A stretch of DNA of 64,000 nucleotides from a virus (taxonomy: Duplodnaviria > Caudoviricetes), in IMG/VR virus record IMGVR_UViG_3300021256_000057, positions 96,001-160,000 of that record; one strand, 5' to 3'. The stretch's first letter is position 1; each line of letters opens with the position of its first letter. This document shows, piece after piece, positions 3,377 to 24,359 of this stretch. The position numbers and the translations under genes are program-made. The notes below the pieces were generated by a model. The model saw only the letters and a program-made list of their open reading frames with translations, made no database searches and was not told where the DNA came from.

Positions 3377-3486
3377 GGAGTACAGTCTATCCTACATGTT
3401 GCAGAGCGATTTGGACAATCTGGTTTACATGGATGATCCACGATGGTCAGCTCCTTATTATTTATTTGGAAACAAATGAATGTCAC
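3277..3486 (-). CDS. Hypothetical protein (Cys-rich)
   Basis: PCKPDCPNRSATCRIDC; tightly packed operon. Confidence 0.5.
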   Translation of the reverse strand: MTFICFQINNKELTIVDHPCKPDCPNRSATCRIDCTPWKEYEKNRNQKYKDKLAENERISATIRKIGKR

Positions 3487-3806: not shown

Positions 3807-3824
3807 GGTGCAACCCTCACTTTC

Positions 3825-4142: not shown

Positions 4143-4154
4143 AGCCTCATTTCC

Positions 4155-4730
4155 TCACTTATGCCACCTCATCTTTAGAATGAATTTGATCATTTTCAAA
4201 TAGTTATCTCTAATTGTATCATAGGCTTTCTTAGATTCATCATCAGGCAGTCTATCGGATATGACATCAGATGTGGTATCAAGCCAGTCTTGATAGAACT
4301 TGGTCAGCTCCGATCTTGTCATCTCTTCAAGAGTTCTTAGAGCGCCATGATAAGAGTGAGCATCTACATTGATCAATTTGATGTACTTTGCTACTTCGTC
4401 AAATTCTTCCTTGCCGAAGAACTCAACAAGTACAGGCTCTAGCTGGATGATCTGTATATCATCTAGGAGGATGTCTACACCAGCTTGATCTACAGTAAAT
4501 ATCTTCATACTAGAGATACTAGCATTATCATCAATATAACCGTTCACTTTGTCAAAGAGCCAATTTACGCGACTTGCATCTCCATTGTTATGCCCGATAG
4601 ACCAAGATCGCAAGCTGATCGACTTGATCCTACAAAATGGAAGATTTTTCTCAATTAAGATACGTCTCTTATTATCTTTCAGGCCATTCTTCCATAACCT
4701 GACCCTAGCTATAAGCAGTCTAAGTGACAC
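4155..4730 (-). CDS. Hypothetical protein
   Basis: 191-aa ORF downstream of ACTCGTTATA motif at 4762-4771. Confidence 0.6.
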   Translation of the reverse strand: MSLRLLIARVRLWKNGLKDNKRRILIEKNLPFCRIKSISLRSWSIGHNNGDASRVNWLFDKVNGYIDDNASISSMKIFTVDQAGVDILLDDIQIIQLEPVLVEFFGKEEFDEVAKYIKLINVDAHSYHGALRTLEEMTRSELTKFYQDWLDTTSDVISDRLPDDESKKAYDTIRDNYLKMIKFILKMRWHK

Positions 4731-4848
4731 ACTATCACGCCTTTCGATTTGTGCTATCTATTATAACGAGTGTGAAAGAATCAAAAAGATGCAGTCCTAT
4801 TGAACTGCATCTATATGTAAATATTCTGTGAACGTATACACATCTATA

Positions 4849-4877
4849 TTGACTTATGTGGATTTATGTGCTATAAT
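4849..4877 (+). promoter_or_regulatory. sigma70/sigmaA-type promoter for the candidate acr operon
   Basis: TTGACT-17 bp-TATAAT, 31 nt upstream of ATG 4909 (RBS AAAGGTGG). Confidence 0.8.
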
Positions 4878-4908
4878 AAAGAAAACATGTAGAAAGGTGG
4901 CGATAGCC

Positions 4909-5649
4909 ATGACAAAAGAGACTGCATATTTGTTAGGGCAGGTCTATGGAAAACTGATCAGCCTTAACAAGAACTGGGACACGATGGCCAGACTAACGAT
5001 CGCTATGAGAAAGCCCATGCGAGCTATCACGGAGCTGCACTTGAATGCGATTCGTTCCAAATTTTTCACTGATGATGTACAAGAGTACATCATGTTCCGT
5101 CTTGCAGATGTGTCTGTAGATGATGCTATGAGCGATATGAACACAGAGACATCCAGCTCGTTCATGCTCGGTGTGCATTCCTTCGATCTGGATGCCCCAC
5201 AGCTCATCAAGAACATAGATCTAACACAGGAAGAGATCGCAGAAAAGCTCGGTGTGAGCGCAAACACTGTATCGAGATGGAAACTCGGTACATCATCGCC
5301 ATCTCAAAAGACGCTGTATAAATTGCAGAAGCTCAGGATCGATCCGTTCGGCTTTGAGAGATATGAGGATATGGTGCTGATAGACGAGGTATGGCATGAT
5401 CCGTCTCATCCGTATGAACTTATCGTAGAGGATCGTGGCAACTTCTATGTCTATGGTAAGCCGTTCATCAAATCCCCTAGTAGCAGTCAGTTCCGCAGAT
5501 TCCCCACAAGGCCGGTCGAAAAGGCAAGACCCGGATATCTCCATAGGTATGGCATCTGGGCAAGAGGATTATGCAGAAGAAAGGATGTAGATCTGTATGA
5601 AAAAGAAAAAGCCGGATCCGATGCCTCTGGCAGCGATCAAGAACCTTAA
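4909..5649 (+). CDS. Fusion: Cas8c C-terminal/Cas11-like helical domain (tentative) + XRE HTH + unknown C-terminal domain
   Basis: HTH clear (LTQEEIAEKLGVSANTVSRWKLGTSSP). N-terminus AYLLGQVYGKL...P..AITELHL...SSFMLG resembles the AYLxGRLFA...P..F..L...QGxFxLG pattern of Csd1/Cas11c. Confidence 0.55.
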   Translation: MTKETAYLLGQVYGKLISLNKNWDTMARLTIAMRKPMRAITELHLNAIRSKFFTDDVQEYIMFRLADVSVDDAMSDMNTETSSSFMLGVHSFDLDAPQLIKNIDLTQEEIAEKLGVSANTVSRWKLGTSSPSQKTLYKLQKLRIDPFGFERYEDMVLIDEVWHDPSHPYELIVEDRGNFYVYGKPFIKSPSSSQFRRFPTRPVEKARPGYLHRYGIWARGLCRRKDVDLYEKEKAGSDASGSDQEP

Positions 5650-6514
5650 AGAGAACCATCCTGATGTATGGCGGAAGGTCGATGCTAATGATATCAATTC
5701 TGCGGTAGAATATGCAAAGTCCCATAACATCCCTGAATCCGCATATATTATCGCTGCTCTGTCTCGGTGGAGACTCAGCAAGCAAATCTTTGAGGTCAAT
5801 GAGGAGCTGTGCAAGATCCTCATGAACTCGGATAAACTTGATGAGGAGATACCGAACGAAGTGATCAATAGATTGATCTACAACTCCTTTTACGTCAAAC
5901 TACCAGAGAATTTCTTGACAGTACGTTCTGTAAACGGAGAATCTATGGATCTTCCCATGGATGGCTTCTTCTACAATGTTATAAATAAATCCATCCTGAT
6001 CGTTATCATGTACAGTACAGGACACACCCAGAGCCTCGGATTTGACATCTACAATGACTTGTCGCTTAGGGCATGTATGGAGAAGCATATGACTGCTAAC
6101 AGTGATGTATACAAGACAGTCAACTTCTTCTTACAGATCGTTCTATATCTCTGTGCGGATAATGCGGACATTGAGGAAAACAAAGTTCAGCGCTCTGTGT
6201 ATAAGCAAAGTCCTATCGTAACAGATAGATACTCAGAAGTCCGTAAATGGGATGTTGGTTGGAGATATGGCAATGCTATTAAAAAGATGAGATCAAGTCA
6301 GGCTACGGATGGATCACACGCAGAAGCATCTCATGTTGGATCTCATACCAGGAAAAGGACACATGTCCGCAGAGGACACTATCATCATTACTGGGTAGGA
6401 TCTGAGAAGTCTGGTAACAGGGAGCTGATCTTAAAGTGGACATCACCAGTGGTAGTCAACGCAGAATACGAAAACACTGCAACTATCCACAGAGTTATCC
6501 ATAAAGTGAAGTAA
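5597..6514 (+). CDS. AcrVA2-like protein (AcrVA2/FinQ-related family)
   Basis: WRLSKQIFEV, LYLCADNADI, WDVGWRYG, KRTHVRRGHYHHYWVG, ELILKW..PVVVN follow the order of AcrVA2 motifs as I recall them (WR..GIYQL, LWLC..EPDI, YQIGERLG, PHIRRGHWHGYW, VRW..VFVN). Confidence 0.78.
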   Translation: MKKKKPDPMPLAAIKNLKENHPDVWRKVDANDINSAVEYAKSHNIPESAYIIAALSRWRLSKQIFEVNEELCKILMNSDKLDEEIPNEVINRLIYNSFYVKLPENFLTVRSVNGESMDLPMDGFFYNVINKSILIVIMYSTGHTQSLGFDIYNDLSLRACMEKHMTANSDVYKTVNFFLQIVLYLCADNADIEENKVQRSVYKQSPIVTDRYSEVRKWDVGWRYGNAIKKMRSSQATDGSHAEASHVGSHTRKRTHVRRGHYHHYWVGSEKSGNRELILKWTSPVVVNAEYENTATIHRVIHKVK

Positions 6515-6524
6515 GTAAAAAATG

Positions 6525-6603
6525 GGAGCTGTGCATCATAACAGATGTACAGCTCCTTTTCTATATCAATAAGAAATACCCTGCTAGTGTTATCCAGCAG
6601 GGC
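6525..6603. terminator. Two hairpins between convergent genes
   Basis: GGAGCTGT...ACAGCTCC followed by TTTT (6525-6560) and CCCTGCT...AGCAGGG-like stem (~6579-6602). Confidence 0.65.
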
Positions 6604-6613
6604 ATTGTCTTCA

Positions 6614-7042
6614 TCAAAGACCTAGTTTGTTTAGAATCCAAGCAGAAATGTTCGGAGCTGCATCTTCGGCCACCATGCGCTTGATCTGTTCAAGCTGCGC
6701 GTTGGTGACCGAGATCGACAATACAGTCTTCTCACCATCTTCATCAACATCACCGAAAATCTTTTCATACGCATCTACATCGAGATACTCCTCAGCCCAC
6801 TTCTTTGCGTCTGCGTATGACATCGGCATGATGCGCTCACCAGGAGCCCACTCAGACATACCAGCGGATTCAGCGTACTTGCTACCAGCATGGCCATATC
6901 CGTGCAGGAAGAACTCGCCACCGCGCTTGCGGTAGAGTGTCTCACAGTAGTAGTCATACTGTGATTTGGAGCTGTGCGTGTACTGTGCCAATTCCTGTGC
7001 TGTATCGGTGTCATACCGTTTTCCGTTAATAATCTTTTTCAT
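6614..7042 (-). CDS. Conserved phage protein (MKKIINGKRYDTxTA type), possible C-terminal ribbon-helix-helix
   Basis: Common phage N-terminus; C-terminal LSISVT...LEQIKRM...NISAWI. Confidence 0.6.
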   Translation of the reverse strand: MKKIINGKRYDTDTAQELAQYTHSSKSQYDYYCETLYRKRGGEFFLHGYGHAGSKYAESAGMSEWAPGERIMPMSYADAKKWAEEYLDVDAYEKIFGDVDEDGEKTVLSISVTNAQLEQIKRMVAEDAAPNISAWILNKLGL

Positions 7043-7064
7043 TGCATGTGATCCTCAATTCCGA

Positions 7065-7301
7065 TTATTCTCTAAAAAAGTCAACTCTGGAATTTCTGAA
7101 CGTTTTCGTAGTACCATCGGCGAATGTTACGATCGTGTACTCGTTGTATTCGTCGATTTCATCAATACCAGTGTTATGAGCTTCATCTGCACTGAGCTTT
7201 TTCACATCGAACGACCAGACATCCTTGTAAATACGCTCTTCGAGCTTCTTGCTTTCTACATTGTACTTGCAGCCATCGTAGATCTTTACCTTGATAACCA
7301 T
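7065..7301 (-). CDS. Small acidic hypothetical protein
   Basis: Strong RBS GGAGGTGG. Confidence 0.65.
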   Translation of the reverse strand: MVIKVKIYDGCKYNVESKKLEERIYKDVWSFDVKKLSADEAHNTGIDEIDEYNEYTIVTFADGTTKTFRNSRVDFFRE

Positions 7302-7330
7302 TGTACCACCTCCATTGTTTAATGTGCGTC

Positions 7331-7750
7331 TTACTGCATCAGCAGTTTCTTGATGATCTCCTGCTTGTGTTCTTTGATAGCATTCTTCGTATCTGCGGGC
7401 AGGATAGCCCAGCCAGGAACCAGGATGTGCTCACCGTCCTCGTGCATCCTAAGATGGTATTTTTCAATCAGCTCCTCGACATAGGACAGCGGAGTATGCT
7501 CTGCGATCCATCTCTCTGCGATCCAGCTCTCTGCGGTCTGTATGCTGTGCATCCCTGCGGTGATCTCGTCCCAGCCGCCCCACTCAGCATCATCGAGCAT
7601 CTCGATAACCTCACCGTCCCACAGGCGCTCTACCTTGTCACAGATCTCGTCATCGCTAAGGTCAAAGTCGATCACGGCAGTGCCACGGTCATCGTCCATC
7701 AGGATGAGATAGTTCATCGTGTTATCTTGGCCTACAAACAGTCTTCTCAT
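7331..7750 (-). CDS. Acidic hypothetical protein
   Basis: RBS AGGAGG; first gene after the sigma70 promoter at 7811-7839. Confidence 0.65.
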   Translation of the reverse strand: MRRLFVGQDNTMNYLILMDDDRGTAVIDFDLSDDEICDKVERLWDGEVIEMLDDAEWGGWDEITAGMHSIQTAESWIAERWIAEHTPLSYVEELIEKYHLRMHEDGEHILVPGWAILPADTKNAIKEHKQEIIKKLLMQ

Positions 7751-7810
7751 GATATGCCTCCTATTTCATGCAGATCTTCTGGGCATCCGCTAAACCCTAT
7801 CCTCTATTAC

Positions 7811-7839
7811 ATTATAGCATACTTTTGCATAAATGTCAA
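7811..7839 (-). promoter_or_regulatory. Consensus sigma70 (early) promoter
   Basis: Minus strand TTGACA-17 bp-TATAAT. Confidence 0.85.
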
Positions 7840-7908
7840 TCCATATAACAATTATGTAAATGTATATATGTAGAAAACAGAGTGAATATTTGTGCAGCAT
7901 GCTAATAG

Positions 7909-7948
7909 CAAAACCCGGCTACAGTCTAAACCATAGCCGGGTGTTTTG
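7909..7948. terminator. Rho-independent terminator
   Basis: CAAAACCCGGCTA...TAGCCGGGTGTTTTG inverted repeat after the 7958 gene. Confidence 0.7.
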
Positions 7949-8353: not shown

Positions 8354-10414
8354 TTAGAATTGAATCTTAAGCACCCTTTCAGTAGCGCCGATCACCTTTA
8401 CAACAAGCTCTGCCCTCTTATCGGTAGCAAAGCCAAGTCCAGACAACTGATCATCTGTGTCAGCTACACGCATCTTGTTACTGATAGCCTGCATCACACG
8501 ACGATTCTCATTCAGCTCCTGCACAAGATACTCGTTGAAGATACCGGAGGGATTCTCATCGTTCACACAGCCATCGAGCATGAAGAACACATGCTGATGA
8601 CCTACGTTCTTCTCCGCGGTAGACCAGTGGTTAGGAGAGTACATGATGCTTGTAACAGGTACAAACTTGTTGGTGTCGATAGACCACTTTGTCTTGCTGG
8701 CAACCCTTGTGTTATCAATTGCAGGGATGATCGAGAAGTTACCAGACTCATCAAGGAGAACATCTGCAACTACAACATCTTCATGGTATCTCATAGAATG
8801 CGGATAGTCGAAACTGTAGATCTCACCATCCATCTCGATCTCTGCGCGAAATCCATGCATTACAGATCCGCTAAACTGATTTACATAGAAGCTGTACACG
8901 CCAGGTGTCATTCGAGACTTGTTAGGCCATGTAATATTCTCTACGGCTGTCTTATCGACACCGCGAACATCAGATCTGGGATCGATAATGTCAACATCGA
9001 GATTTCCACCTGTCTTATAATCCTCCTTAGCGCCAAAGTAGATCTCAGCGCCATCAGGTGTACGAGCATGTGCATCAAGGTCATAGCTATCGTCCTGACT
9101 CTCGTTCCACTTGATAGAGAAGCGCAGAGCACCCTCTACATTACCACCGAACGACTTTACCTTTTCCTTGAAACTGTCGGTAACGTTGCCTGTGTACGCC
9201 CAGGAGAAGTTATTGCCCCACTTAAACATAGACTTGCTATCCTTGTTTACAGGAGCGATAAGAGATACAAAGTTACCAGAGTGCTTATTCTCGACATACG
9301 CTTCGATTCTTGTTGCAGTAGGGACGATGTCCTTGATGAACTTTTCAATAGAGACTGTTTCCACTCTATCAAACTTTTTGGGTTTGGTAGTAACATCCTT
9401 TGCAAGTGCATCAAAGATGGTTTCAGCTCCTTTGATCCGGTGTGCAGCAGAGCGGTCTGTAAAGAGGATGTCATTCACAGTGATGTCATCCAGAGTAGAA
9501 AACCGCCTAGGCAGAGAGTCCATATAGCCCATGTCAGTGATCTTCTTCTCAGCATCCTTTCGCATCCGCTCTGTGAAGATAGGCTTAGGATGCTTGTATA
9601 CCGTAGGATCTGTGATAGCTTCGTAATTCCTTACTGCATCCTCAAGATCCCTGCCGTTGCTGATGTCAATAAGAAGTACGCCGATCGAATGATTCTTGAT
9701 ACGGACAACTGGTGTATTAGCCAGCTTCGTGGAAGTGTACCATGCGTACAGATCTTTATGCCGTGAATCGAAGTTATCATACTCTGTTCTACACCACCAG
9801 AGCCTCTCAAGTGCCTTTTTCCACTCATTACCTCTATAGATAGAGTTGTCAGCGATCAGCTCCAAAACGGTATCGATCGCATCGATGCTGATCTCCTCTA
9901 GAGATCGCTTGAATACTTCCTTGGACGTTCTGAGTTCATTCAGTTTTGTGTTCTTCTCATCCGATCTTACGACATGCTTGCCAGCTAGGTCAATGAAGAA
10001 ATGATCGAATCTGAAATGGCTTACCTTTTCCAGAATCTCGAAGTTATGATGGCATCCGATCTTACTGAATGATGACAGGAATACATCACGAACATCATGC
10101 CTATGGACGAACTCAGACATTGCCTTGATAACAGGTCCATAGGTTTCATCATCGATATCGAAGTCCCAAATGGATACCATTTCACTTCCGATGATAGCTA
10201 CAACAGCTCCGATGTTCTTGATGAAGCCGCGGCAGCAAGAGCAGTCATGCTCTGTTCTTGTACGGAAGATCTTGTTTGTACCCTTTGGGAACGAACTGAG
10301 ATAGGTGTTCCACATCTCATCCTTGTTGACACCCACCTCAAAGAGGTAGTTTTGGTCGCGCATGACCTCATCAAAGTGCTTGATGAGCATGTCCCTCATT
10401 TCTGTAAACAGCAT
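8354..10414 (-). CDS. Conserved large phage protein with C-terminal YfaP/DUF2135-like region
   Basis: HDCSCCRGFI N-terminal motif; LRFSIKW..DLDAH..GGNLDVD..AVENITW. Confidence 0.7.
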   Translation of the reverse strand: MLFTEMRDMLIKHFDEVMRDQNYLFEVGVNKDEMWNTYLSSFPKGTNKIFRTRTEHDCSCCRGFIKNIGAVVAIIGSEMVSIWDFDIDDETYGPVIKAMSEFVHRHDVRDVFLSSFSKIGCHHNFEILEKVSHFRFDHFFIDLAGKHVVRSDEKNTKLNELRTSKEVFKRSLEEISIDAIDTVLELIADNSIYRGNEWKKALERLWWCRTEYDNFDSRHKDLYAWYTSTKLANTPVVRIKNHSIGVLLIDISNGRDLEDAVRNYEAITDPTVYKHPKPIFTERMRKDAEKKITDMGYMDSLPRRFSTLDDITVNDILFTDRSAAHRIKGAETIFDALAKDVTTKPKKFDRVETVSIEKFIKDIVPTATRIEAYVENKHSGNFVSLIAPVNKDSKSMFKWGNNFSWAYTGNVTDSFKEKVKSFGGNVEGALRFSIKWNESQDDSYDLDAHARTPDGAEIYFGAKEDYKTGGNLDVDIIDPRSDVRGVDKTAVENITWPNKSRMTPGVYSFYVNQFSGSVMHGFRAEIEMDGEIYSFDYPHSMRYHEDVVVADVLLDESGNFSIIPAIDNTRVASKTKWSIDTNKFVPVTSIMYSPNHWSTAEKNVGHQHVFFMLDGCVNDENPSGIFNEYLVQELNENRRVMQAISNKMRVADTDDQLSGLGFATDKRAELVVKVIGATERVLKIQF

Positions 10415-10429
10415 TGAATTAGCCCTCCA

Positions 10430-10621
10430 TTATAGTTTTTTCGCATATTTGATTGTGATAGTATTAACTGACTTTAAATACGAAACTGTCACCTCGTAAC
10501 CATTGCTGATCAACATATGGACGATGTCTTGATAGCCTTTTTCGTATTCGATCCTCATAACCCCTTGATCTTTTTCCATTGTTTCACCTCCTATCATTTG
10601 ATCATGTTCTTTATGATGCAC
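10430..10621 (-). CDS. Small hypothetical protein (start likely 10579)
   Basis: RBS AGGAGG before MEKDQG; operon packing. Confidence 0.55.
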   Translation of the reverse strand: MHHKEHDQMIGGETMEKDQGVMRIEYEKGYQDIVHMLISNGYEVTVSYLKSVNTITIKYAKKL

Positions 10622-11547
10622 ATCACAGTCCTTGAACAGATCTTACTGAAATTATCTACATTGTCTACAGTCTCCGGCTCTTCCTTGATGCAGTCATCGT
10701 ATACGAGCTTTGGAGCTGTTTTAGCAATAATTCCAAGGTCGTGTTCGTCCCATTCTTCACGGAGCTGCCCTGCATCTATCATCTTCTCGATGATCTTTGA
10801 TACTCTCCGCTCAGTAATGATCGTAGCGGCCAGCTCCTTATCTGCTTGCTCCTTTGCAGCTACATCAGGATCCTTTGGTGCTTTGGACTTGTGTGCCTTT
10901 GTCTCTGCAAACTCATCCGTTACGATTTTAACGTAGATAGGTCTATCACTGTTAGTAGGTAGTCCAAGTCTATCTTGAGACTTGATGACAATGCCCTCAC
11001 CAGTAGGCTCTGCATCAAGATGTGTTACACCACAAAAGCGGCTTACATCATCCCATCCAGTAAACTTACAAACATCAAGAACTGGTACAAAGTTGATGTG
11101 TGTGCAACCGCATACTCTTTGCAGTGCCTTGTACATAGCATTTGCATCCTCGATAGAGATGTACTGTTCTGTATCACAGTCCCATACATCAAACATGTAG
11201 AACTTATAGTATCTGTTATCTGGATACTTGATCGTATGCGGTGCGAGCCACTCACCAAATATGATATATCTTCCATACTCTGTGATCTCATTCAGACGTG
11301 TAGCAGGGATCTGCTGTGCCCACTCGTAGAAGCCGCGAAGAGGTTTATCTTCGGATAGCTCCGTGTTTCGGGAAAACGCCTTTACAATGCAGTTACCATC
11401 ATCATCTACATTGGTAGTAAACGATGCGTTAGCCCCATCGACCTTTTCCTCGATGACGATATTCTCACCGATTGCAAATGCATCTTTGTACTTATCCTTG
11501 AGACGTTCGATGTCCATATACTTCTTCATTTGTGTTACCTCACTCAA
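10594..11547 (-). CDS. RNA ligase, Rnl2 family
   Basis: Motifs I EEKVDGAN, III IFGEW, IIIa MFDVW, IV EGIVIK, V VKIV. Confidence 0.88.
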   Translation of the reverse strand: MSEVTQMKKYMDIERLKDKYKDAFAIGENIVIEEKVDGANASFTTNVDDDGNCIVKAFSRNTELSEDKPLRGFYEWAQQIPATRLNEITEYGRYIIFGEWLAPHTIKYPDNRYYKFYMFDVWDCDTEQYISIEDANAMYKALQRVCGCTHINFVPVLDVCKFTGWDDVSRFCGVTHLDAEPTGEGIVIKSQDRLGLPTNSDRPIYVKIVTDEFAETKAHKSKAPKDPDVAAKEQADKELAATIITERRVSKIIEKMIDAGQLREEWDEHDLGIIAKTAPKLVYDDCIKEEPETVDNVDNFSKICSRTVMCIIKNMIK

Positions 11548-12268
11548 AAGTTATTCTGCTCTCGATGTAGTCTCTATCCTGCGTAAATATCGGTGTTTCG
11601 TAGTCGATCGACCATCCAAAATCCGACTTAACACAGCAGGCGCCTCTCTTTTGATAGTTGGAGAAGTCCATTCCCCAATTGATGCCTTTCTCTTGGAACA
11701 ACTTCTCTTGGATCTCATCCATGTTAAGACCGTGCATCTCTTTCTCAGAGAAGTTAGCGTGTCCCACGGACTGGATAGAGTTTCTGGTTGCATCCTGCTG
11801 TCTCCAGATAAGATAGTTTGTAACCTCGTCCCTTGGTAGCGTAAATGCTCTTGCATCAAATGTAGCACCAAGTGCAATAGCTTCTTTGTATGGAGTTGTA
11901 TCTGAAAATACTTCGCTGGAAAACGCTCGGTTGAATGCTAATGTAGCCATACTCGCAGATACGCTCACGAGCTTTTGGAGTTCGTTTCCAAACCAAGGCT
12001 GCCTATCAATAGTCTGATAGTCACACAGTACAAAAGAAATCTCGTCAGACTGAGTGTAGCCAAGTACACACCCAGAGATGTTCTTACACAGATACTGCAT
12101 GGTACTTGTCATGCTTCTCTCGATAGTTACATCAAACGGCTTATCCATGTGTCTTGTGAACGTGTGGAACGCTCTTCCATCGATTCGGATGATAACAGGG
12201 GATCTACGCATCAGACTGATCTTGCTGCATTCCTCATACTGCTTCATTCGTTCTCCAAGTGTACTCAT
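11540..12268 (-). CDS. thg1: tRNA(His) guanylyltransferase Thg1-like (3'-5' polymerase)
   Basis: RIDGRAFHTFT, YTQSDEIS, FDAR, YLIWRQQDA.RNS. Confidence 0.93.
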   Translation of the reverse strand: MSTLGERMKQYEECSKISLMRRSPVIIRIDGRAFHTFTRHMDKPFDVTIERSMTSTMQYLCKNISGCVLGYTQSDEISFVLCDYQTIDRQPWFGNELQKLVSVSASMATLAFNRAFSSEVFSDTTPYKEAIALGATFDARAFTLPRDEVTNYLIWRQQDATRNSIQSVGHANFSEKEMHGLNMDEIQEKLFQEKGINWGMDFSNYQKRGACCVKSDFGWSIDYETPIFTQDRDYIESRITFE

Positions 12269-14250: not shown

Positions 14251-14316
14251 CAAAAACAACTCAAATGCTTGCATCTATTGAATAATTCTGATATAATAAT
14301 AGGAGGAGGTGGTCAT

Positions 14317-14613
14317 ATGGCAATCACAGAATTGTTGAAAACACTTAGGGTAAAAAAGGGATACACGATGAAGCAGGTCGCAGAGCTGTGTGGTATGCAT
14401 GAACAGGTATATCGCAACTATGAAAATGGTGCTCGAAACCCAGGTGTTCCGGCTCTCTGCAAATTTGCAGATTTGTATGGTGTAACAGTAGACTTCTTGC
14501 TGGGTCGTGAGAGTAAGGATGCAGATGTGTCTAATGACAAGTATGTCAATCTACCAGATGAGGTCAAGTGCATCATAGATGCGATAGTGGATTATGCAAA
14601 TAACAAATCATAA
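14317..14613 (+). CDS. XRE-family HTH regulator
   Basis: LKTLRVKKGYTMKQVAELCG...YENGARNP...FADLYGVTVDFLLGR; RBS AGGAGGAGG. Confidence 0.9.
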   Translation: MAITELLKTLRVKKGYTMKQVAELCGMHEQVYRNYENGARNPGVPALCKFADLYGVTVDFLLGRESKDADVSNDKYVNLPDEVKCIIDAIVDYANNKS

Positions 14614-14841
14614 GGACAGCTCCGATGTAGATCTGCACGAGCAGCTTGTTCGGACGGTAGCTGGTACACTAGCTATCGAGGGCATCGAGCTGAGTGAGAA
14701 CAGCAAGCGTAACCTAGAGAGATACGCAAACGGTGAAGCCGATGCACAGCAACTGCTTGAAATGGGGTCAACCGCAATCCCACCGGATTTAGACGGTGGG
14801 TTAAGGTTGACAAATGGTATCAAAAATGATATACTGTAATT

Positions 14842-15246
14842 ATGAATAAATGGAAATAAAAAAACAGACATAAATATTTGTTGCAGTATCATGTGATATT
14901 TGTTTGTAAATACAGAAAGAAATTACTTTCAGCAAAAGAAATTTCAGATGATATAAAGCGATTGTCTTGCGAAATATGTCAAAAACATAATATAACTATC
15001 AAATATATGTGGACAGATAAAGACCATATACATTACATGATAGAAACAGAACCAACAATTTCGATAAGTAAATCTGTAAATTTAATGAAAAGTTATACAA
15101 CGTATCACATTTGGCAAAATCATAGTTATTATCTGTCAAAACATTTTTGGAAAGAACGTACATTTTGGACTGACGGATATTTTGTTTGCAGCGTTGGAAA
15201 TGTATCGGAGAAAATACTCAAATAGTATGTAGAAAATCAAGGATAA
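14842..15246 (+). pseudogene. tnpA: TnpA Y1 (HUH) transposase with two nonsense codons
   Basis: MNKWK*KNRHKYLLQYHVIFVCKYR...DHIH...KILK*YVENQG; stops TAA 14857-59 and TAG 15223-25, the latter directly before the catalytic Tyr. Confidence 0.88.
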
Positions 15247-15261
15247 GGGGGTGGGCAGTAA

Positions 15262-16359
15262 ATGTTAAAAGCATACAAATACAGAATATATCCAAATAAA
15301 GAACAGATGATGCAGATTATAAAGACATTTGGCTGCTGCCGATTTGTATATAATCAAATTCTGGCCTATCGAAAAAATCAATACGAAACAGAAAAGAAGA
15401 GCATGAGTAAAACTGCCTGTAACAATTACTGCAATCAAGTATTAAAAGCACAGTATGAGTGGCTGAAAGATGTGGATAAATTTGCCTTGACAAATGCGAT
15501 TTACGATATGGATACAGCTTATCAAAAATTTTTCAGAGAGCACACAGGTTATCCAAGATTCAAAAGCAGACACAATAAAAGAAAGTCATATACAACAAAT
15601 TTTACAAATAATAATATAGAAGTATTTGATAACAGCGTAAAGCTGCCGTATCTGAAAAATGTAAAAGCAAAAATACACCGAAAGTTTTCAGGTCAAATAA
15701 AATCTGCAACGATTTCACAAACACCAAGCGGAAAGTATTTTGTATCTGTTCTTGTAGAAACTGAACATAATGCACTTGCACATACTGATAAGAACATCGG
15801 AATTGATTTAGGAATAAAAGATTTGTGCATTACTTCCGACGGCAAAAAATATGAAAATCCTAAAACTTTGCGTAAATATGAGAAAAGGCTTGTAAAAGAA
15901 CAGCGGAAACTTGCACACAAGAAAAAATTAAGCAAGAACAGAGAAAAACAAAGAATCAGAGTGGCAAGACTTCACGAAAAAATAACAAATATCAGAAAAG
16001 ATTATCTGCATAAAATTTCTCATGAGATTATTAGCGAAAACAAAGTGATAGTTTCTGAAAATTTGCAGATAAGCAATATGATAAAAAATCATCATCTTGC
16101 AAAAAGCATAGCAGATGCATCATGGTATGAACTTACAAGGCAACTGGAATACAAGGCTTTATGGAACAACAGACAGTATGTAAAAGTTGATACGTTTTAT
16201 GCAAGCAGTCAGTTATGTTCCTGTTGCGGCTATCAGAATCCCAAAACCAAGGATTCATCTGTAAGAAATTGGATATGTCCAAACTGTGGAGAAAATCATG
16301 ACAGAGATATCAATGCTGCTAAAAATATACTTTCAGAAGGATTAAGGCTGTTAGCCTAA
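15262..16359 (+). CDS. tnpB: TnpB RNA-guided nuclease (IS605 type), RuvC residues intact
   Basis: [32 protein letters not shown] Zn finger, [10 protein letters not shown]. Confidence 0.95.
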
Positions 16360-16488
16360 AATAGTACGATATAGGGCAGGGACTGTCCGAATTTACGCCT
16401 GTGGAGTTAGTAGGTTACGAGGACTATGAAACAGGAAGCCCATTGGCTTTAGACAATGGGTAGTTCACGAGATCAAGAACCGATACAA
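16340..16488 (+). ncRNA. Predicted omegaRNA/reRNA of the IS605 TnpB (boundaries approximate); guide about GAGATCAAGAACCGATACAA
   Basis: Position between tnpB 3' end and right end; established TnpB architecture. Confidence 0.55.
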
Positions 16489-16500: not shown

Positions 16501-16527
16501 CGGAGCTGCACGACATGTACAGCTCCG
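16501..16527. terminator. Bidirectional hairpin CGGAGCTG...CAGCTCCG
   Basis: Inverted repeat between convergent genes, A/T runs on both sides. Confidence 0.65.
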
Positions 16528-16533: not shown

Positions 16534-17547
16534 TTATTTTACTTTGTGGCTTGTAACATCGATCTCACCAGCAGCTCCATTTACGAAGCACTCCGATACC
16601 CATTTCACAACAAGTTCTTTGCTATCTCTCTTACCTACCCAGTACCGATGCCAATGTGCTCGGCGTAGATGCGGTCTAACTGTGCCGGTAGATTCTGTAT
16701 GGTCTCTAGATGCACCGAGACTTCCCTTTGTCCACTTACGGAATGCAGCTCCAAATCGTTCGCCTACATGATACTCTCTACCAGGTTTATTAGCTGGATC
16801 ACGATGCTTTTGTCTCTTGTAGCTTGCGTTCAGTGCTTTTGAAGTTGTAGTCTCACGGATGTCAGGAGCATATGAACACATGTATTCAAGAGTGTGCAGC
16901 AAAAGACTCCATAGTTTCTCGCGAACTTCAAAGAGATCAGGATCATCTACTCTGCTGATCTTCAATTGGCTCTCTACAAATTCTTCTGCTGTGCAGTCAA
17001 TGTCTTCATCTTTCAGGAATAGTACATGTGACGCACACATATATTCTTTGTCGAACATGTTGTGAAAAGATGCTCTGATCATCCAATAATTCCCGTACTG
17101 CTTGACGTTTACGATTCCACCTGCTACATTTGTTTTGTCGACCGCATATTGACAGTTTGCATAATCAATAGCGAATGTATCGACTGGAAGTCTTGATAGC
17201 ATGCCTTTAAGCATATTGATGTTCTGAGTGTCCATCAGTTCTTTTGTGAAATCGGAATCAAAAACGTAGATCTGCTTCTTCCTTTCCCACTGTGTATTCA
17301 GGAAATACTGATTCAGAGCACGGAACATCTGGTCGTAGCCATTCCTATCACAGTTCTTGTATACAAGATTCAGGAATCCAGTATGGTCGTGGCCATCTGC
17401 GATAGGGATTCCATTTGCCATAGCATAATAAATGTAAATAGCATCTTCCATCTCAACAGATGGTGTGGTTTTCAATATGTGGTCTGTAGCTTCAAACTTA
17501 TTCTTGAACTCTCGTATGCTGGCTCTCAGATCAAACATAGACGACAT
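16534..17547 (-). CDS. Second AcrVA2-like protein
   Basis: WERKKQIYVF, RLPVDTFAI, LEYMCSYAPDI, YHVGERFG, VRPHLRRAHWHRYWVG, ELVVKW..CFVN. Confidence 0.8.
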   Translation of the reverse strand: MSSMFDLRASIREFKNKFEATDHILKTTPSVEMEDAIYIYYAMANGIPIADGHDHTGFLNLVYKNCDRNGYDQMFRALNQYFLNTQWERKKQIYVFDSDFTKELMDTQNINMLKGMLSRLPVDTFAIDYANCQYAVDKTNVAGGIVNVKQYGNYWMIRASFHNMFDKEYMCASHVLFLKDEDIDCTAEEFVESQLKISRVDDPDLFEVREKLWSLLLHTLEYMCSYAPDIRETTTSKALNASYKRQKHRDPANKPGREYHVGERFGAAFRKWTKGSLGASRDHTESTGTVRPHLRRAHWHRYWVGKRDSKELVVKWVSECFVNGAAGEIDVTSHKVK

Positions 17548-17557: not shown

Positions 17558-18064
17558 TTACAATCTCATTGTGTCATCTGTATCATTGCATCTCTGCATC
17601 TGATTCATCAGCACTGGTATCCACTTGTTACCTAGGTTTTCATCTCGAATCACTTGTATGCTGTTGAGGCATGTCGATTTTAGATGAATCATGTCAATGA
17701 TGTCTTTTGCGTATCGTTCGTTATCAAGGACTAAATAGTATACTGTTAAGAACAAAAGAAGCTCGTCCTGATCCTCTACATTCAAAGAACAGAATCGAAT
17801 AGATGACAGAATCGCATCTTTCGGAGATTTGAGTTCATTCGTAGTGATAACCATGTATTCTCTCAATGCGTCCAATCGGCTATTCAACGGTTCAATGAAT
17901 GTAGATGGGTGGTGTCCCTGTATCATAATCATTACATACAGTACATTAGTATTATTGTATAAGAAATTGCTGCGCATACATTTGTTTAATACTCGAAGTC
18001 TATACCTAGCACTTAGGCCTCTAGGATATATCAGATATTCATTCAATTTCCTCACCTCTACCAA
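17558..18064 (-). CDS. Hypothetical protein (start uncertain)
   Basis: 168-aa ORF next to ACTCGTTATA at 18066-18075. Confidence 0.5.
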   Translation of the reverse strand: MVEVRKLNEYLIYPRGLSARYRLRVLNKCMRSNFLYNNTNVLYVMIMIQGHHPSTFIEPLNSRLDALREYMVITTNELKSPKDAILSSIRFCSLNVEDQDELLLFLTVYYLVLDNERYAKDIIDMIHLKSTCLNSIQVIRDENLGNKWIPVLMNQMQRCNDTDDTMRL

Positions 18065-18131
18065 CTATAACGAGTAATTATGACATGATTGGAGCTGCCC
18101 TATATTCCGGACAGCTCCAATTGTTTCTACA

Positions 18132-19292
18132 TCAGAGCCGCAAATCGTTTCTGGAGCAGAGCTTACCGTGCTTACGCAGGAGATCCAGCAGTTCTGCTCT
18201 GATAGCTACATTCTCGATGTGGTCGAGGTTGTCCTTTACCACATCAAGGAAATCCTGCTCGAACTCATCCGTGGTATCGTTCTGGAACATCCTATAGATG
18301 TCAAAGGCCTCTCTGGAAGTTGTGAACACGCAGGAGAGATCCGCAATCAGGCAGGAGTAGGCGATGTTCTTATCGTTAGATACTTCTCGAACGCACTTTC
18401 TCCACTCATCGATGACCTTGTAGCAATCTGCAATATTGCTAACGCATGGTACAGCTCCGTGTGTACGGATACAAACAACTGCGTTTCTGTATCTTACCAT
18501 CTCCAGATAGTGGTCGCTCACATTGATATACCGGAGCACAGACTTTGCATCTCTATAAGCTGCGTTCTGCGCAGCTTTTAGGGCGTCCTTGTAGTAAGGA
18601 GAAGTAACAGGGATCACACACTCATCGGTCTCGAAATAATCAGTCATGCTGTCAGACCCGTTGGTTGGGTCCAGCTCAGCCGGGATGTGCCCATCATAAT
18701 CCTTTGCATGGAGCTGGATCGGGCTCTTGTCATCGGTGCATCTATACCAGCATCGGATGATGTTACCACCATCTACCTTGATGCCGTTGTAGTAGAACTT
18801 GATACCCTTCTTCTTGTCGCTCATCTTCGGAGCTGCACAGTCCGCACCAGACCTCATGAGCCGATTTACTACACCTTGGTAGAAGTTGTACTTTCTCTGT
18901 TCCAGCTCTCTGTTGGCTTCATCGTAGTAGATTTTATCTTCCAGTCTGTCATGGATCATGATGCACTCTTTGTTGAAGTATTCTATGATACCATGAACGT
19001 TCTTGATGCCGACTACCTCGATCTTTGCGTTTGCCGCGTTCCACTGCTTTGCTTCTGCGTTCTTTGCATAGTTGTTGGTGTACGAGTGGATCGGCCAGAA
19101 GTTCGTCGTGTTCTTCGAGATCGCGAGACTTCCGTTCTTGCAGAGCCTATGCAGACACAAGTCAGACCCTCGATAGCCGGGTACTTCAGAGGAGTGTGCT
19201 ACGAAGTACAGGCCATTATCAGTCTTGAAGTAGGCACCTGTGATCTGCACCACATCGCCTACTCTGATTTCGTTTCCATTTTTGTCTTTCAT
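18132..19292 (-). CDS. Hypothetical multi-domain protein
   Basis: 386-aa ORF, RBS AAAGGAG; N-terminal DKNGNEIRVGDVV (SH3/KOW-like). Confidence 0.7.
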   Translation of the reverse strand: MKDKNGNEIRVGDVVQITGAYFKTDNGLYFVAHSSEVPGYRGSDLCLHRLCKNGSLAISKNTTNFWPIHSYTNNYAKNAEAKQWNAANAKIEVVGIKNVHGIIEYFNKECIMIHDRLEDKIYYDEANRELEQRKYNFYQGVVNRLMRSGADCAAPKMSDKKKGIKFYYNGIKVDGGNIIRCWYRCTDDKSPIQLHAKDYDGHIPAELDPTNGSDSMTDYFETDECVIPVTSPYYKDALKAAQNAAYRDAKSVLRYINVSDHYLEMVRYRNAVVCIRTHGAVPCVSNIADCYKVIDEWRKCVREVSNDKNIAYSCLIADLSCVFTTSREAFDIYRMFQNDTTDEFEQDFLDVVKDNLDHIENVAIRAELLDLLRKHGKLCSRNDLRL

Positions 19293-19304
19293 GATGATCT
19301 CCTT

Positions 19305-19757
19305 TCACTTATCGTACTCTTTCCAGCAATTGGGAAGAGGGCATATATCGATACGATTTTCTATAAGCGTGTATTTATTTCCATCTACGATCGTTCTGTA
19401 ATAATAGTTCCGACCATCATCAGACGCATACTTAGCAAACTTCTCGAACCAGTACCGCTGTTTGTATGTCATGAACTGGTTGTGACGAAGATCCTTGCAG
19501 AATGCTCTGAACCACTCGTTCTTTGGCTGATTTGCGGTTGACAGGTAGCACACGAGTTTCCGCCTTGGTGCAATCATCGCATTGCGAAATGAGCACGCTT
19601 CCTGATCCAATTTAGCCCAGATGCCGTTATCCTCCACAGCATCTGCACGTTCTTGCATGAGGTTATATTCCTTTTCCATGCGTTCGATGTCTTTCTTGAT
19701 CTTTGCTTTGCTCATCATGTATATCACCACCACTCTATTCATATAACGATTTCTCAT
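19305..19757 (-). CDS. Hypothetical protein
   Basis: First gene after early-promoter module copy 2. Confidence 0.6.
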   Translation of the reverse strand: MRNRYMNRVVVIYMMSKAKIKKDIERMEKEYNLMQERADAVEDNGIWAKLDQEACSFRNAMIAPRRKLVCYLSTANQPKNEWFRAFCKDLRHNQFMTYKQRYWFEKFAKYASDDGRNYYYRTIVDGNKYTLIENRIDICPLPNCWKEYDK

Positions 19758-19758
19758 A

Positions 19759-19908
19759 TTTGGTATTTGACTTGTATCTTTTGGTTATCTATAACCTTCT
19801 ATTATAGTATAGCACAAATCATATCATTTGTCAATGCATATCAACCCATTTGATATGCTTTTCAAAGAAAATCGACGGTTTGCACAATTTCCATCAAATG
19901 ATATTATT
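19759..19908 (-). repeat. Repeated early-promoter module, copy 2
   Basis: As copy 1; minus-strand TTGACA-17-TATACT at ~19806-19834. Confidence 0.75.
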
Positions 19909-19922
19909 CAGATAAAAGATGA

Positions 19923-19949
19923 TGCCCCAGAGTATGTTTCTCTGGGGCA
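19923..19949. terminator. Hairpin TGCCCCAGAG...CTCTGGGGCA
   Basis: 10-bp perfect stem after the lysin gene. Confidence 0.7.
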
Positions 19950-19953
19950 ATTG

Positions 19954-22020
19954 TTACTTCATGATGATACTGATTTGTTTCCATAGAGCAGATGCGGTAT
20001 TTTGTCTTGATTGAGATTCTCTATCTATATTTGCTGGTACTTCAAACTTACGGACAAATACATCTGCGGCCTCTCTCGCCCCCTGTTCTGTATTTGCTAC
20101 TGTAACAAGTTTCGCAAGCACTCTATCTTTATATGAGCCGTTGAGTTCATACCATAGATAATTTAACTGTCCTGTTAGGTTGTTTGCCCAGTCAGACCCG
20201 GCCATAGACTTCATAGCTGTACCTCGTTCATAATGCCACTGGCATATACCAAATGATGTAGGTACTCCACCTTGATAGTCTCCCTTGGATTCAGGATTGA
20301 ATGAGCTTTCATGCTTGATATTAGCGGCGATAGCGATACTAGCAGCGGCGTTAAGCCCCTTACTCAATAGGAACTGTACGATTATCTTGCAATTCTGATT
20401 CTGCATAGCATCTAGGGATACTGTATTGCTGTTGTCTGTACCAATGGAAGATAGGTCAGCTCCGCCGATAGATACGCCACTGAATGCACCACTAGATAGT
20501 GCTGTAGTATAGTTTATCACAGATACTCGGATATTAGAAATCTTTGCCACGGTCAGTGCATTATCATCAATGTATCCGAACTCACGAACGATCGCATCTT
20601 CTTTTGTACACATCGTAGTGTATAGCGGCTGTACAGCTCCGGCATCCCCATATACATCAAAGATATCACCATCTTCGCTACTGTCCTGCACGTCCTCCCA
20701 CTTTGGCCGATAGTATGCACATATCTTCTTATCACTTTTGCTGTAGTCGCGTTCTACGACCTTACCCCCATTATCACCTTCGACAACATGGACAGTATTA
20801 TTATTCTTTACAGACAGTACGATAGCAACTTTATCGCATTCATATGTAGAGTAGTCTTGTCCGATTTTAGTTCTCAGCATCATCAGATCTCCTACTTTCG
20901 GAGATGTCTTTGATGTGATCCACGATCCTATCTTGCTATGCTCTGCGTTTTTACCTATATCACTAGGGCAATTTGACATCGGTATCGCTTTGCCTAGTAA
21001 ATCATTCTTTTTAGCGCAAGCCATTACATATTTGCAGGACCAAGGCTCTGTTGTTCGATACCCACCTATCTGACTTGCTATAAATGAAGCATAGTCCTTG
21101 ATGTGTTCTAGTGCAGTTTGTGTGAAGTTGGATACTTTATTTGTTGGTTGACCTCCGCCAGGATTGTAGATAAAGCCCTGGAAATGAAACTTGCTACTCC
21201 ATGTATAGAGCGGTGGTTTCAGCGTCTGCATATAAAATCTTTTACCTTGCCATGCAGAATTTGATGTTTCAATCGTACCATCTGGGTATACTTTCTCAAC
21301 GATAGCTACATGCCCAGCTCCACCATCTTTGCTCCAGCAAGCTACAGCACCAAGTCTAGGTGTTTTACCCCGTTCATATCCATCTTGAGTATAGCTTATC
21401 CATGTACCTGCATTATGCCATGACAATTTGCACTTTGTTACGCCCATAATCTCCATAAATCGTCCATATGCGTATCCGACACAGTTACCAGTCAGCTCTC
21501 CGTTCTCAAGGGTCATCATGTGTGTCTCTGGTTCTACAGCACAATATACTTTCTTAGTCCGCCTTGTCTCCTTTATATGATCTACCATGATAAACAAGTT
21601 ATACTTTGAATATCGGATAGCCATACCTCGAACGAGATCTACTGTCTCAACGATATGCCAATTTACCCGGTCATCATCAAATATGACCCACCGATGATTA
21701 CCAGAACACTTGTAAACTGATCCATTCTGAAGATGAACTTCATATATCTTCTGCTTACCAAAACAAGATACAGTTGCATCTCGCATAACTCCATCCATAG
21801 TTGGTATCTTTATCTGAAGCCCCTCTAACTTCTTCAAAGGGAAAACTCCCTTATCGGTCTGTATCTTTGTATCTCCTGTAAAACAGTTTGGTAGGACAGA
21901 TCCAGAAGATGCGCTTGCGTGCCACCCAAGGATGCATGGGCTATATCCGCCCTTTGATTGCTGTATCCATAATTTATTTGTATATCCTGGGTCAGTTGTT
22001 CTAGGTACAAAAGCCATCAT
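19954..22020 (-). CDS. Virion-associated peptidoglycan hydrolase: CHAP (intein-interrupted) + degenerate CHAP + phage tail lysozyme domain
   Basis: PN|CVGYAYGRF...GAGHVAIVE...SNS (CHAP); PWSCKYV...KVAIV...VEGDN (degenerate); ANIKHESSFNP...GICQWH..R (Phage_lysozyme2-like). Confidence 0.85.
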   Translation of the reverse strand: MMAFVPRTTDPGYTNKLWIQQSKGGYSPCILGWHASASSGSVLPNCFTGDTKIQTDKGVFPLKKLEGLQIKIPTMDGVMRDATVSCFGKQKIYEVHLQNGSVYKCSGNHRWVIFDDDRVNWHIVETVDLVRGMAIRYSKYNLFIMVDHIKETRRTKKVYCAVEPETHMMTLENGELTGNCVGYAYGRFMEIMGVTKCKLSWHNAGTWISYTQDGYERGKTPRLGAVACWSKDGGAGHVAIVEKVYPDGTIETSNSAWQGKRFYMQTLKPPLYTWSSKFHFQGFIYNPGGGQPTNKVSNFTQTALEHIKDYASFIASQIGGYRTTEPWSCKYVMACAKKNDLLGKAIPMSNCPSDIGKNAEHSKIGSWITSKTSPKVGDLMMLRTKIGQDYSTYECDKVAIVLSVKNNNTVHVVEGDNGGKVVERDYSKSDKKICAYYRPKWEDVQDSSEDGDIFDVYGDAGAVQPLYTTMCTKEDAIVREFGYIDDNALTVAKISNIRVSVINYTTALSSGAFSGVSIGGADLSSIGTDNSNTVSLDAMQNQNCKIIVQFLLSKGLNAAASIAIAANIKHESSFNPESKGDYQGGVPTSFGICQWHYERGTAMKSMAGSDWANNLTGQLNYLWYELNGSYKDRVLAKLVTVANTEQGAREAADVFVRKFEVPANIDRESQSRQNTASALWKQISIIMK
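21484..21885 (-). mobile_element. Mini-intein (134 aa, no homing endonuclease), aa 46-179 of the lysin
   Basis: Block A CFTGDTKI, block B CSGNHRW, block F VYCAVEPETH, C-terminal LTGN followed by +1 Cys. Confidence 0.9.
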
Positions 22021-22082
22021 ATCACCTCAATATATTCAAGATCGGAGCTGCCCAACTCTATCGGACAGCTCCGTGTCGCCTA

Positions 22083-24359
22083 TCATTTCAATCCGCTCCA
22101 TTTACCGTGATTTGTAACACTTGCTACCTTTTTACCTTTCCACCCTGTTAGGTCGATGACGGTAGACTGGTCTGTTGCATATGCGGATGAGCCATTTTTC
22201 TCCCACTCTATGATGTCGATCTTACCGCCGTAAAGATGACCCCATGATGTAGGTGCATCTGCCCCTTTTGAATCCGCCATAATAGCAGTAAACTTTGTGC
22301 CATCTTCTAGTGTAATGGTCAATAGATCTCCTGTAATTCCAAACCGAGGAACCATCGCCAATAGATAATGTCCAGAAATTGTAGCTATATTTCGACTGCT
22401 TGGACGTCCCTGAGAGTTCCAAATATCAGCAAGCTGTCTTTGAACAGTACGCGCTTTCCACTTCGGATACCAATAACTATAGTTAGTATAGTTTTCTGCA
22501 ACACCTTTCTGATCGACATTTGCAGGAATTGTAACTGTAGTTCCTCCTGCTGGTGGTGTTGTATCATACACCATACCCTCAGTAGGATAATAACCAGTTA
22601 TCGTATGGGATTCCACATCAGATGGATCAAGCATAAAGAACTCTGGATATAGGAGCTGTTCAACTTCTGATATCTCCTCTACATGCTCTACCATCCACCA
22701 GTAGAAGTCCTCTTTCCACTCGTCCCACGAAATAGTTGCTATCTGATCTCGGTCTACATAGAAGCCCATCTTACTTACAAGACCGAGTTTTGTCAATCTC
22801 TCCTTGTATGTCTTGATGATGCTGTCATTCATCGTTTTATCCTCTTCCTTGAATGCAAATGTAAGCCAGCATCCGAGAGGAGGTGTATATTTCTGTATGA
22901 TGAACTGTAGCTCTTGCAGTTCTGCCTTGGCTTCATCTACATTTCTAGCTCGAATATCAAAATACAGAGCATAGGGCATCTCAGCATCTTTAGCAAGTTT
23001 CACTTGTTCATCTATCTTCGGATTTCTATATCGAGCTACTACCATATGGGATTTATCATATAAAAAGCCGCCCTCTATCATGAGAGCTACGACTTTTATC
23101 TCTTTGAGCTTGTCTATATCTATATCTTCACTCTTGCGGTCTATAGTAGCGATATAAGGAGTAAATGTAGTCCAATCTACATTGACAGCTCCGCCGAATG
23201 CAGCTCCGAACGCGGTTAGTCCGTTTAGGCCAGCAGTCGTTGTATAGCCACCAGCAGTATATCTAAATGCAGTAAACCACTTATCGTTATAGTAGTTATG
23301 TACCCAAACTTCCCAGCCTGTCTGATCTCCCTCTTTACCGCCATGTGCTCCCTTAAACTCGTTCTGAGATGCTTCGACAAGTTGCCCATCTCCAACATAC
23401 ATTGCTGTATGCCCATGAGCTAACAGCACATCGCCTCTAATTAGATTTGCATAACTAGATGGATTGAAATTAGGAACATATGAGAAACCAGTCTTTATGA
23501 AAATGGCTTCCATATTTCTTGTATTTGAGGCATGATTTGTTTTAACAGGAACACCTGCGTTCTCATATGCCGATATCACAAGAGATGAGCAGTCATAATC
23601 TGGACCCCATCGTGAGCCCTGGTCATATCCGTGAGAATCATCGTTTGCTATATTGATAGCCCACTGTACTGCATACTCTACTTTTGTTATCTGTGTAACA
23701 GGTGGATAGTAGGCTACACCAGATGTAGGATTGCTACCACCAGCAGTAGCACCATAGTCATAATCAAGATCTACGTTCCCATGTATGCCTGGAATAGTCC
23801 CTCTCTCTGAATACTGCCACATGCAGTATGTTCCTTTTTTATAGTAGGAAGGAGAACTGCCTCCGAACTGTGCGACCCACACCTTGTATCCAGTCAATAG
23901 ATCATTTGAAAAGAAATCGTTCAGTGCAGATGCGTTAGAATATAAGCCAAGGTTTCTAACACCAGACATTTTCATCGTATTGAAAAACGCCCTTGTATTA
24001 TTTGAGACTCTATCTGCACCAAGGCTAATTAGTTTGTGAGGGTTCGGATTTTTCCCTCCAACATCCTCCACATCATAGAAGATAGGATACTCAAATGTTT
24101 TACCTCGAATCGCATTTAAGCAGGCGGATGCTTCTTTCACGCATCCTGCCTCATTTGATGCTTGACAGAACCAATATATACCGCATGGTATATGATACTG
24201 TTTACAACTCGCGTATGAGGCTTCAAATTTAGGGTCAGTAGATGTACCATACCCAGCTTGTATGATCACAAATTGAACTTTTCCAGACGAAACGACCTGT
24301 TGCCAGTTGATAGGTCTATCATAATTGTGTTTAGAGATATCTATACCCATCAATGCCAT
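22083..24359 (-). CDS. Multi-domain peptidoglycan hydrolase: GH25 + NlpC/P60 + degenerate GH25-like barrel + C-terminal domain
   Basis: GIDISKHN, YDVED, WQYS..G..PGI.GNVDLD; YDCSSLV...GDVLL..GHTAMY. Confidence 0.85.
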   Translation of the reverse strand: MALMGIDISKHNYDRPINWQQVVSSGKVQFVIIQAGYGTSTDPKFEASYASCKQYHIPCGIYWFCQASNEAGCVKEASACLNAIRGKTFEYPIFYDVEDVGGKNPNPHKLISLGADRVSNNTRAFFNTMKMSGVRNLGLYSNASALNDFFSNDLLTGYKVWVAQFGGSSPSYYKKGTYCMWQYSERGTIPGIHGNVDLDYDYGATAGGSNPTSGVAYYPPVTQITKVEYAVQWAINIANDDSHGYDQGSRWGPDYDCSSLVISAYENAGVPVKTNHASNTRNMEAIFIKTGFSYVPNFNPSSYANLIRGDVLLAHGHTAMYVGDGQLVEASQNEFKGAHGGKEGDQTGWEVWVHNYYNDKWFTAFRYTAGGYTTTAGLNGLTAFGAAFGGAVNVDWTTFTPYIATIDRKSEDIDIDKLKEIKVVALMIEGGFLYDKSHMVVARYRNPKIDEQVKLAKDAEMPYALYFDIRARNVDEAKAELQELQFIIQKYTPPLGCWLTFAFKEEDKTMNDSIIKTYKERLTKLGLVSKMGFYVDRDQIATISWDEWKEDFYWWMVEHVEEISEVEQLLYPEFFMLDPSDVESHTITGYYPTEGMVYDTTPPAGGTTVTIPANVDQKGVAENYTNYSYWYPKWKARTVQRQLADIWNSQGRPSSRNIATISGHYLLAMVPRFGITGDLLTITLEDGTKFTAIMADSKGADAPTSWGHLYGGKIDIIEWEKNGSSAYATDQSTVIDLTGWKGKKVASVTNHGKWSGLK

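Follow-up and report, generated by a model that had tools for sequence, protein, structure and literature searches.

Two AcrVA2-like genes from separate subfamilies in the genome of one large gut phage

The locus described here raises the question of whether two diverged open reading frames of one phage, designated ORF A and ORF B, are both AcrVA2-like, how they came to reside in the same genome, and whether they would act on one target or on two. They lie in the window, a stretch of 64,000 nucleotides that corresponds to bases 96001–160000 of a 183,567-bp IMG/VR virus record rated complete by CheckV. The phage turns up in metagenomes from animal guts, bovine gut samples giving partial matches, and a search of the complete ~184-kb genome gave exactly two AcrVA2-like copies, A and B. 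We know of no bacterial protein other than AcrVA2 that has been shown to destroy an mRNA on recognizing its nascent product, FinQ is to our knowledge the one further member of the family for which a phenotype has been described, and the only family targets known to us are Cas12a and, loosely, the F transfer genes. AcrVA2 recognizes nascent Cas12a and triggers the decay of its mRNA, members of the family usually occur without Cas12a in a survey, and FinQ, which belongs to the family and is encoded on IncI-type plasmids, lowers the mRNA of the F transfer genes (Marino et al., bioRxiv 10.1101/2022.11.29.518452). The initial annotation gave the background on nascent Cas12a, mRNA decay, and homologues beyond Cas12a hosts correctly, and it is already published, as is the idea of a conserved effector module with diverged recognition and targets other than Cas12a (Marino et al.). 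AcrVA2-like genes in large phages (jumbo/megaphages) are also already known (Al-Shayeb et al. 2019 preprint; Marino et al.). The Pfam family and the mechanistic idea are thus prior knowledge; what is new here is that the two genes belong to separate subfamilies, are under selection with key residues retained, that one of them sits in a variable cassette, and that the pairing is uncommon and recurring.

A and B are intact, real new members of the known AcrVA2-like family (PF26125), an assignment that follows from three independent routes, namely sequence, predicted fold, and the annotation of relatives. At the level of sequence, phmmer against the PDB aligned B78–324 with residues 71–318 of the AcrVA2 chain 7ci1 (E 3.3e-11) and matched A to AcrVA2 in its C-terminal part only (E 9.1e-6), whereas FinQ as annotated on IncI-type plasmids was matched by B in tblastn (E 1e-5 over B87–307). 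A and B also have in common a PHROG family without assigned function, phrog_6160, which they match with E values of 5e-27 and 1e-35. The AF2 models of B and A are confident (pLDDT 86.6 and 86.9), and with Foldseek their sole PDB match was AcrVA2 (7ci1/7ci2; probability 1.0, TM 0.52–0.58), with E values of 6.7e-12 for B and 6.2e-12 for A. An aligner independent of Foldseek, VIA, superimposed 252 residues spanning B3–323 on AcrVA2 with a Z score of 15.3 and an rmsd of 4.3, the runner-up for the B model having a Z score of 5.0, and the three-domain fold of AcrVA2 is present in the predicted models of both proteins. Among the precomputed gene-table hits of a 5.8-billion-protein collection, every homologue carries PF26125 ("AcrVA2-like"), including orthologues that are 81–94% identical to B and 80–93% identical to A. 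Pfam and NCBIfam profile scans of A and B themselves gave nothing useful, the Pfam copy scanned being one without PF26125. The family comprises 2,536 representative clusters at E <= 1e-3. The initial reading of both genes as AcrVA2-like is borne out by the homology in sequence and fold, the PF26125 hits on orthologues, and the FinQ match.

The likeness to AcrVA2, which is encoded by a prophage of Moraxella bovoculi, consists of the same predicted fold over the whole length, a similar length (322 residues as compared with 305–337 for A and B), and a phage-borne gene. A and B differ from it in being only ~15–20% identical, in coming from a gut Bacillota phage rather than a Moraxella prophage, and in occurring as two copies of different subfamilies in one genome. 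The analysis identified no AcrVA1-like partner. FinQ is of this family, has the motif KRPHIRRGHWH, and sets a precedent for lowering the mRNA of a non-CRISPR target, but it is plasmid-borne in Enterobacteriaceae, is shorter (259 residues as annotated), and acts in conjugation, whereas A and B are phage-borne.

The coordinates of both genes and their surroundings are collected in Table 1. Translation of B probably begins at the ATG at 17538 (MFDLRAS...), which would give a protein of 334 residues; GGGGGA precedes this ATG by 8 nt, and 334 residues is also the length called for the orthologues. B is the last gene of a four-gene minus-strand unit, and the three ORFs upstream of it in this unit matched no Pfam or PHROG family. 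A rides on a self-contained, HTH-led cassette that is present or absent between close relatives, and the XRE-type HTH gene that precedes it is a candidate regulator of the cassette. The terminator-like hairpins after B and after A are built on one stem, GGAGCTG...CAGCTCC. In comparison with L008, a 94% relative, an IS200/IS605 element has inserted just downstream of B; it lies outside the AcrVA2-like unit of B. The best bacterial relatives of this element are in Ruminococcus MAGs (84% amino acid identity) and Lachnospiraceae (~76%) from animal guts. Naming the host from the element was rejected because the best identity, 84% in the Ruminococcus MAGs, is too low, and it serves as a weak host clue.

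Table 1. Features of the two AcrVA2-like genes and their neighborhoods (positions in the window), followed by A–B identity along the residues of B
Feature	Position	Strand	Remarks
Variable segment: HTH-A cassette and three small ORFs	4847..7912		absent from L008, which has ~0.9 kb instead
Promoter-like site TTGACT-17-TATAAT with TG, 11/12	4849..4877	+	HTH-A unit
XRE-type HTH gene, 246 aa from ATG at 4909	4909..5649	+	overlaps start of A by 53 nt
ORF A, AcrVA2-like	5597..6514	+	305 aa, frame open
C-terminal module of A with HVRRGH	6356..6469	+	H256, R258, H261
Terminator-like hairpin, 14-bp stem GGGAGCTG...CAGCTCC	6524..6557	+	directly 3' of A
IS200/IS605 element, complete, 1.7 kb	14762..16468	+	tnpA 14878-15225 (phrog_2577), tnpB 15262-16359
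Terminator-like hairpin, 11-bp stem CGGAGCTG...CAGCTCCG, then T run	16501..16527	-	7 nt past stop codon of B
ORF B, AcrVA2-like	16534..17547	-	337 aa as listed, frame open
B residues 286-323, basic His-rich beta-hairpin module with HLRRAH	16579..16692	-	H293, R295, H298
B residues 1-85, N-terminal helical domain, least conserved part	17293..17547	-	family column conservation 0.24
Three ORFs (150, 386, 168 aa) upstream of B in four-gene unit	17558..19757	-	syntenic in relatives
Promoter-like site TTGACA-17-TATACT with TG, 11/12	19806..19834	-	ahead of four-gene unit
A-B identity, N-terminal helical domain	B1-85		5%, 48 gap columns
A-B identity, W-KQ strand	B86-108		30%
A-B identity, middle beta domain	B109-200		14%
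A-B identity	B201-285		17-20%
A-B identity, HxRRxH hairpin module	B286-323		47%

Five ordered motifs had been noted as shared by the two ORFs, and all five are found in both: WERKKQIY, LEYMCSYAPDI, VGERFG, HLRRAHWHRYWVG, and ELVVKW in B, corresponding to WRLSKQIF, LYLCADNADI, VGWRYG, HVRRGHYHHYWVG, and ELILKW in A. The similarity is far above chance, with a BLASTP E value of 2e-15 at 24% identity, over B85–337 and A56–305 and extending to both C termini, and with phrog_6160 in common. In AcrVA2, His286, Arg288, and His291 are required for mRNA down-regulation and not for binding, and Trp79 and Asp89 contribute, the D89A mutant being moderately weaker (Marino et al.). In HMMER and family alignments, AcrVA2 W79, D89, H286, R288, and H291 correspond to W87, D97, H293, R295, and H298 of B, and W79, H286, R288, and H291 to W58, H256, R258, and H261 of A, so that A keeps four of the five. 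At the D89 position A has N68, where its own orthologues have Asp; Asn occurs there in 5 of 65 family members. Among these 65 members, the functional residues are invariant or at least 90% conserved, and the two His and the Arg of the C-terminal module are invariant or nearly so. At the AcrVA2 peptide-contact residues E98, D129, and D195, B aligns in HMMER with low posterior probability.

The strong difference between the N-terminal halves described in the initial annotation is evident, with 5% identity over B1–85 and 14% over B109–200, as compared with 47% over B286–323. Likewise, the conserved effector module that it proposed is backed by this conservation profile and by the His and Arg residues kept in A and B. 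Its further suggestion that the module is joined to variable recognition domains holds in part: the N-terminal and middle sequences have diverged, but the AcrVA2 fold is kept throughout (B3–323 in the VIA superposition) with no domain swap. The variable part of A and B is, judging from the models, sequence divergence within one predicted fold rather than a different domain. Eighteen alignment columns are conserved within each subfamily and yet differ between the A and B subfamilies; these are candidate positions for setting specificity. The C-terminal third is basic and His-rich in both proteins, with a net charge of +8 in B and +9 in A, as opposed to an acidic middle with −5 in each. In a 2026 account, as summarized in PMC13728456, the AcrVA2 C terminus associates with ribosomes or polysomes and recruits a cellular enzyme, with target recognition elsewhere in the protein; the charge distribution of A and B fits this account.

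In a tree of 45 family members built under a mixture model, the clade that contains A has 16 rows (support 94) and the one that contains B has 23 rows (96*), while FinQ has a long branch and is poorly placed. Constraining the lineages of A and B to group together lowered the log-likelihood by 214 units (AU p 9e-76), and, because the tested group was named after a first look with FastTree, the formal p value is weakened whereas the 214-unit likelihood gap is not. A and B had been called paralogues, and if this is taken to mean copies that arose by duplication inside the phage, the term does not apply, as the two come from different deep subfamilies; local duplication as the source of the pair is rejected by the tree and by the AU test. 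The relatives of the two genes also have different contexts. The nearest relative of A outside the phage lineage (61%) is on a Rep3 plasmid-like contig. A 42% relative of B adjoins a TraG-like gene, and its ~35% relatives are on phage contigs of 75–243 kb near RNA ligase, Thg1, helicase, and exonuclease genes. In view of the separate clades, the AU test, and these contexts, A and B were acquired separately, from different deep subfamilies. The B subfamily is also represented in other large gut phages. In IMG/VR, no close relative of B was found besides its own record.

The pair occurs in the same order in three related phages, the window phage and two relatives. Between the window and one relative, L169, A is 79% identical at the amino acid level with saturated dS and B is 90% identical with a dS of 0.45, and the greater divergence of A again marks it as an exchanged cassette. 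The dN/dS ratio is 0.038–0.057 for A and 0.087–0.124 for B, values that indicate strong purifying selection on both genes. Pairs of AcrVA2-like genes in a single phage are uncommon. All 10 of the other large phage records with the family that were searched whole (113–210 kb) have one copy, and cultured-phage records have the family in one place each (35/35), so that the AcrVA2-like genes of jumbo/megaphages, which match phrog_6160 as A and B do, are single in these records, in contrast to two in this lineage. In 85 viral loci, the flanks of up to 10 kb, which only just span the distance between A and B, contained no second copy, and the plasmid records with the family have 611 places in 605 records.

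By homology, A and B would each act in the manner of AcrVA2. The C-terminal hairpin module (HxRxxH), which is basic and His-rich, would associate with translating ribosomes, the acidic N-terminal and middle body would capture a particular nascent peptide, and this capture would lead the module to make a host RNase destroy the mRNA concerned. Such a mechanism is carried over by analogy from a protein that is ~20% identical. Because the bodies are 5–17% identical, the module is 47% identical, and both genes are under purifying selection, A and B most likely silence two different proteins, which might belong to a host defense or to a competing mobile element. It is conceivable that the diverged bodies of A and B could recognize one conserved peptide, since AcrVA2 copes with Cas12a orthologues that are 35% identical. 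Taken as a whole, the explanation that A and B are a separately acquired and selected AcrVA2-like pair with an AcrVA2-type action and likely different targets is, on balance, the probable one. The more specific proposal of a two-piece arsenal for silencing nascent chains, in which a common ribosome-docking module is combined with unlike bodies directed at different non-CRISPR targets (defense or competitor proteins) and one piece travels on an HTH-regulated cassette mobile among phages and plasmids, is tentative and in our estimate falls somewhat short of an even chance.

A different account is that A and B act on proteins of mobile elements that compete with the phage, such as co-infecting phages, resident prophages, or plasmids, in a FinQ-like exclusion rather than in a counter to host defense. 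FinQ lowers F transfer mRNA and its annotated form is matched by B, the nearest outside relatives of A are on the Rep3 plasmid-like contig, the 42% relative of B is beside the TraG-like gene, and a block of new synthesis is well matched to proteins whose production starts only once a competitor has entered or been induced. Nevertheless, the wider subfamily of B is found in large phages among replication and repair genes, a setting that is uninformative on the target, and we regard this account as rather unlikely. That only one copy is active, the other being redundant, in the process of being lost, or in a role without mRNA decay, seems highly improbable: the 94% relative does without the A cassette, and A has the D-to-N replacement at the AcrVA2 D89 position, but both genes are intact with promoter-like and terminator-like signals, both keep the two His and the Arg at dN/dS values of 0.04–0.12, the pair recurs in three phages, and Asn at the D89 position is shared by 5 of 65 members.

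It is also quite improbable, though a little less so, that A, B, or both are classical anti-CRISPRs against a host Cas12a, the two copies covering different orthologues or giving redundancy. Cas12a (TIGR04330) scored over the cut-off in just 0/201 and 4/201 genomes of two candidate host families, and this rarity indicates that the target of A and B probably differs from that of AcrVA2. In addition, the family usually lacks an accompanying Cas12a in the published survey (Marino et al.), and A and B are ~15–20% identical to AcrVA2 and 5–14% identical to each other outside the C-terminal module. In favor of Cas12a as the target are the full-length homology to AcrVA2 and the presence of Cas12a in Lachnospiraceae-type genomes from the gut, relatives of which share the IS element of the phage; one such Cas12a has LQKT where the motif recognized by AcrVA2 is LSKT (Marino et al.). 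A complex prediction for B with the first 120 residues of the Cas12a of a Lachnobacterium MAG gave a score of 0.00 in a run without controls and carries no weight either way. Profile A1, run with a positive control, found no family members in 301 genomes of the family of the Lachnobacterium MAG and so offers no lead to the host.

If the favored explanation of separately acquired silencers with different targets is considered from the side of the phage, blocking new synthesis would help little against proteins already present, which makes the benefit doubtful for a phage that is possibly lytic. The genome contains one tyrosine recombinase gene, and a temperate or plasmid-prophage lifestyle may on this basis be envisaged, in which stopping new synthesis would bring the greatest benefit. 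Since they have the same effector module, A and B form a matched pair for finding targets and for mapping the parts that set specificity and, if the two-piece arsenal is real, a natural experiment from which the specificity code of the family could be read. Should the targets prove to be non-CRISPR defenses, the published hypothesis would be extended and no new one opened.

Several other features of the window were noted. Adjoining the site of the HTH-A cassette is a mosaic swap, in which two small ORFs at 3466–4159 occupy the place where L008 has a PAPS-reductase-family gene of 342 aa (19591–20619). Between the two AcrVA2-like genes, a 686-aa protein (8354–10414) matches phrog_1735 almost end to end (E 7e-241); it is kept at this place in all relatives, and proteins related to it have PF26675 (DUF8224). 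An RNA ligase gene beside a Thg1-like (tRNA-His guanylyltransferase family) gene at 10594–12268 is likewise kept in all relatives, and the same two genes are near B-subfamily genes in L087, an unrelated large phage contig; the pair is a candidate tRNA-repair counter-defense. An XRE-type HTH gene at 14269–14613 is followed by a small VbhA-like ORF (14594–14839) containing TLAIEG, which fits the inhibitory motif (S/T)xxxE(G/N) of Fic antitoxins. No Fic toxin gene was seen near this ORF, which could be an orphan Fic inhibitor, and when the IS element inserted at 14762, its sequence took the place of the last codons of the ORF, lengthening it to 81 aa as compared with 58–64 aa in relatives. Just upstream of the unit of B, two large multi-domain peptidoglycan hydrolases are encoded in tandem at 19954–24359, one with CHAP and phage tail lysozyme domains (688 aa) and the other with GH25 and NlpC/P60-like domains (758 aa). 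At 48252–50040, a second TnpB-type transposase gene (phrog_506) adjoins a serine-recombinase ORF with a PF00239 match at ~49456–49845, as in an IS607-type element.
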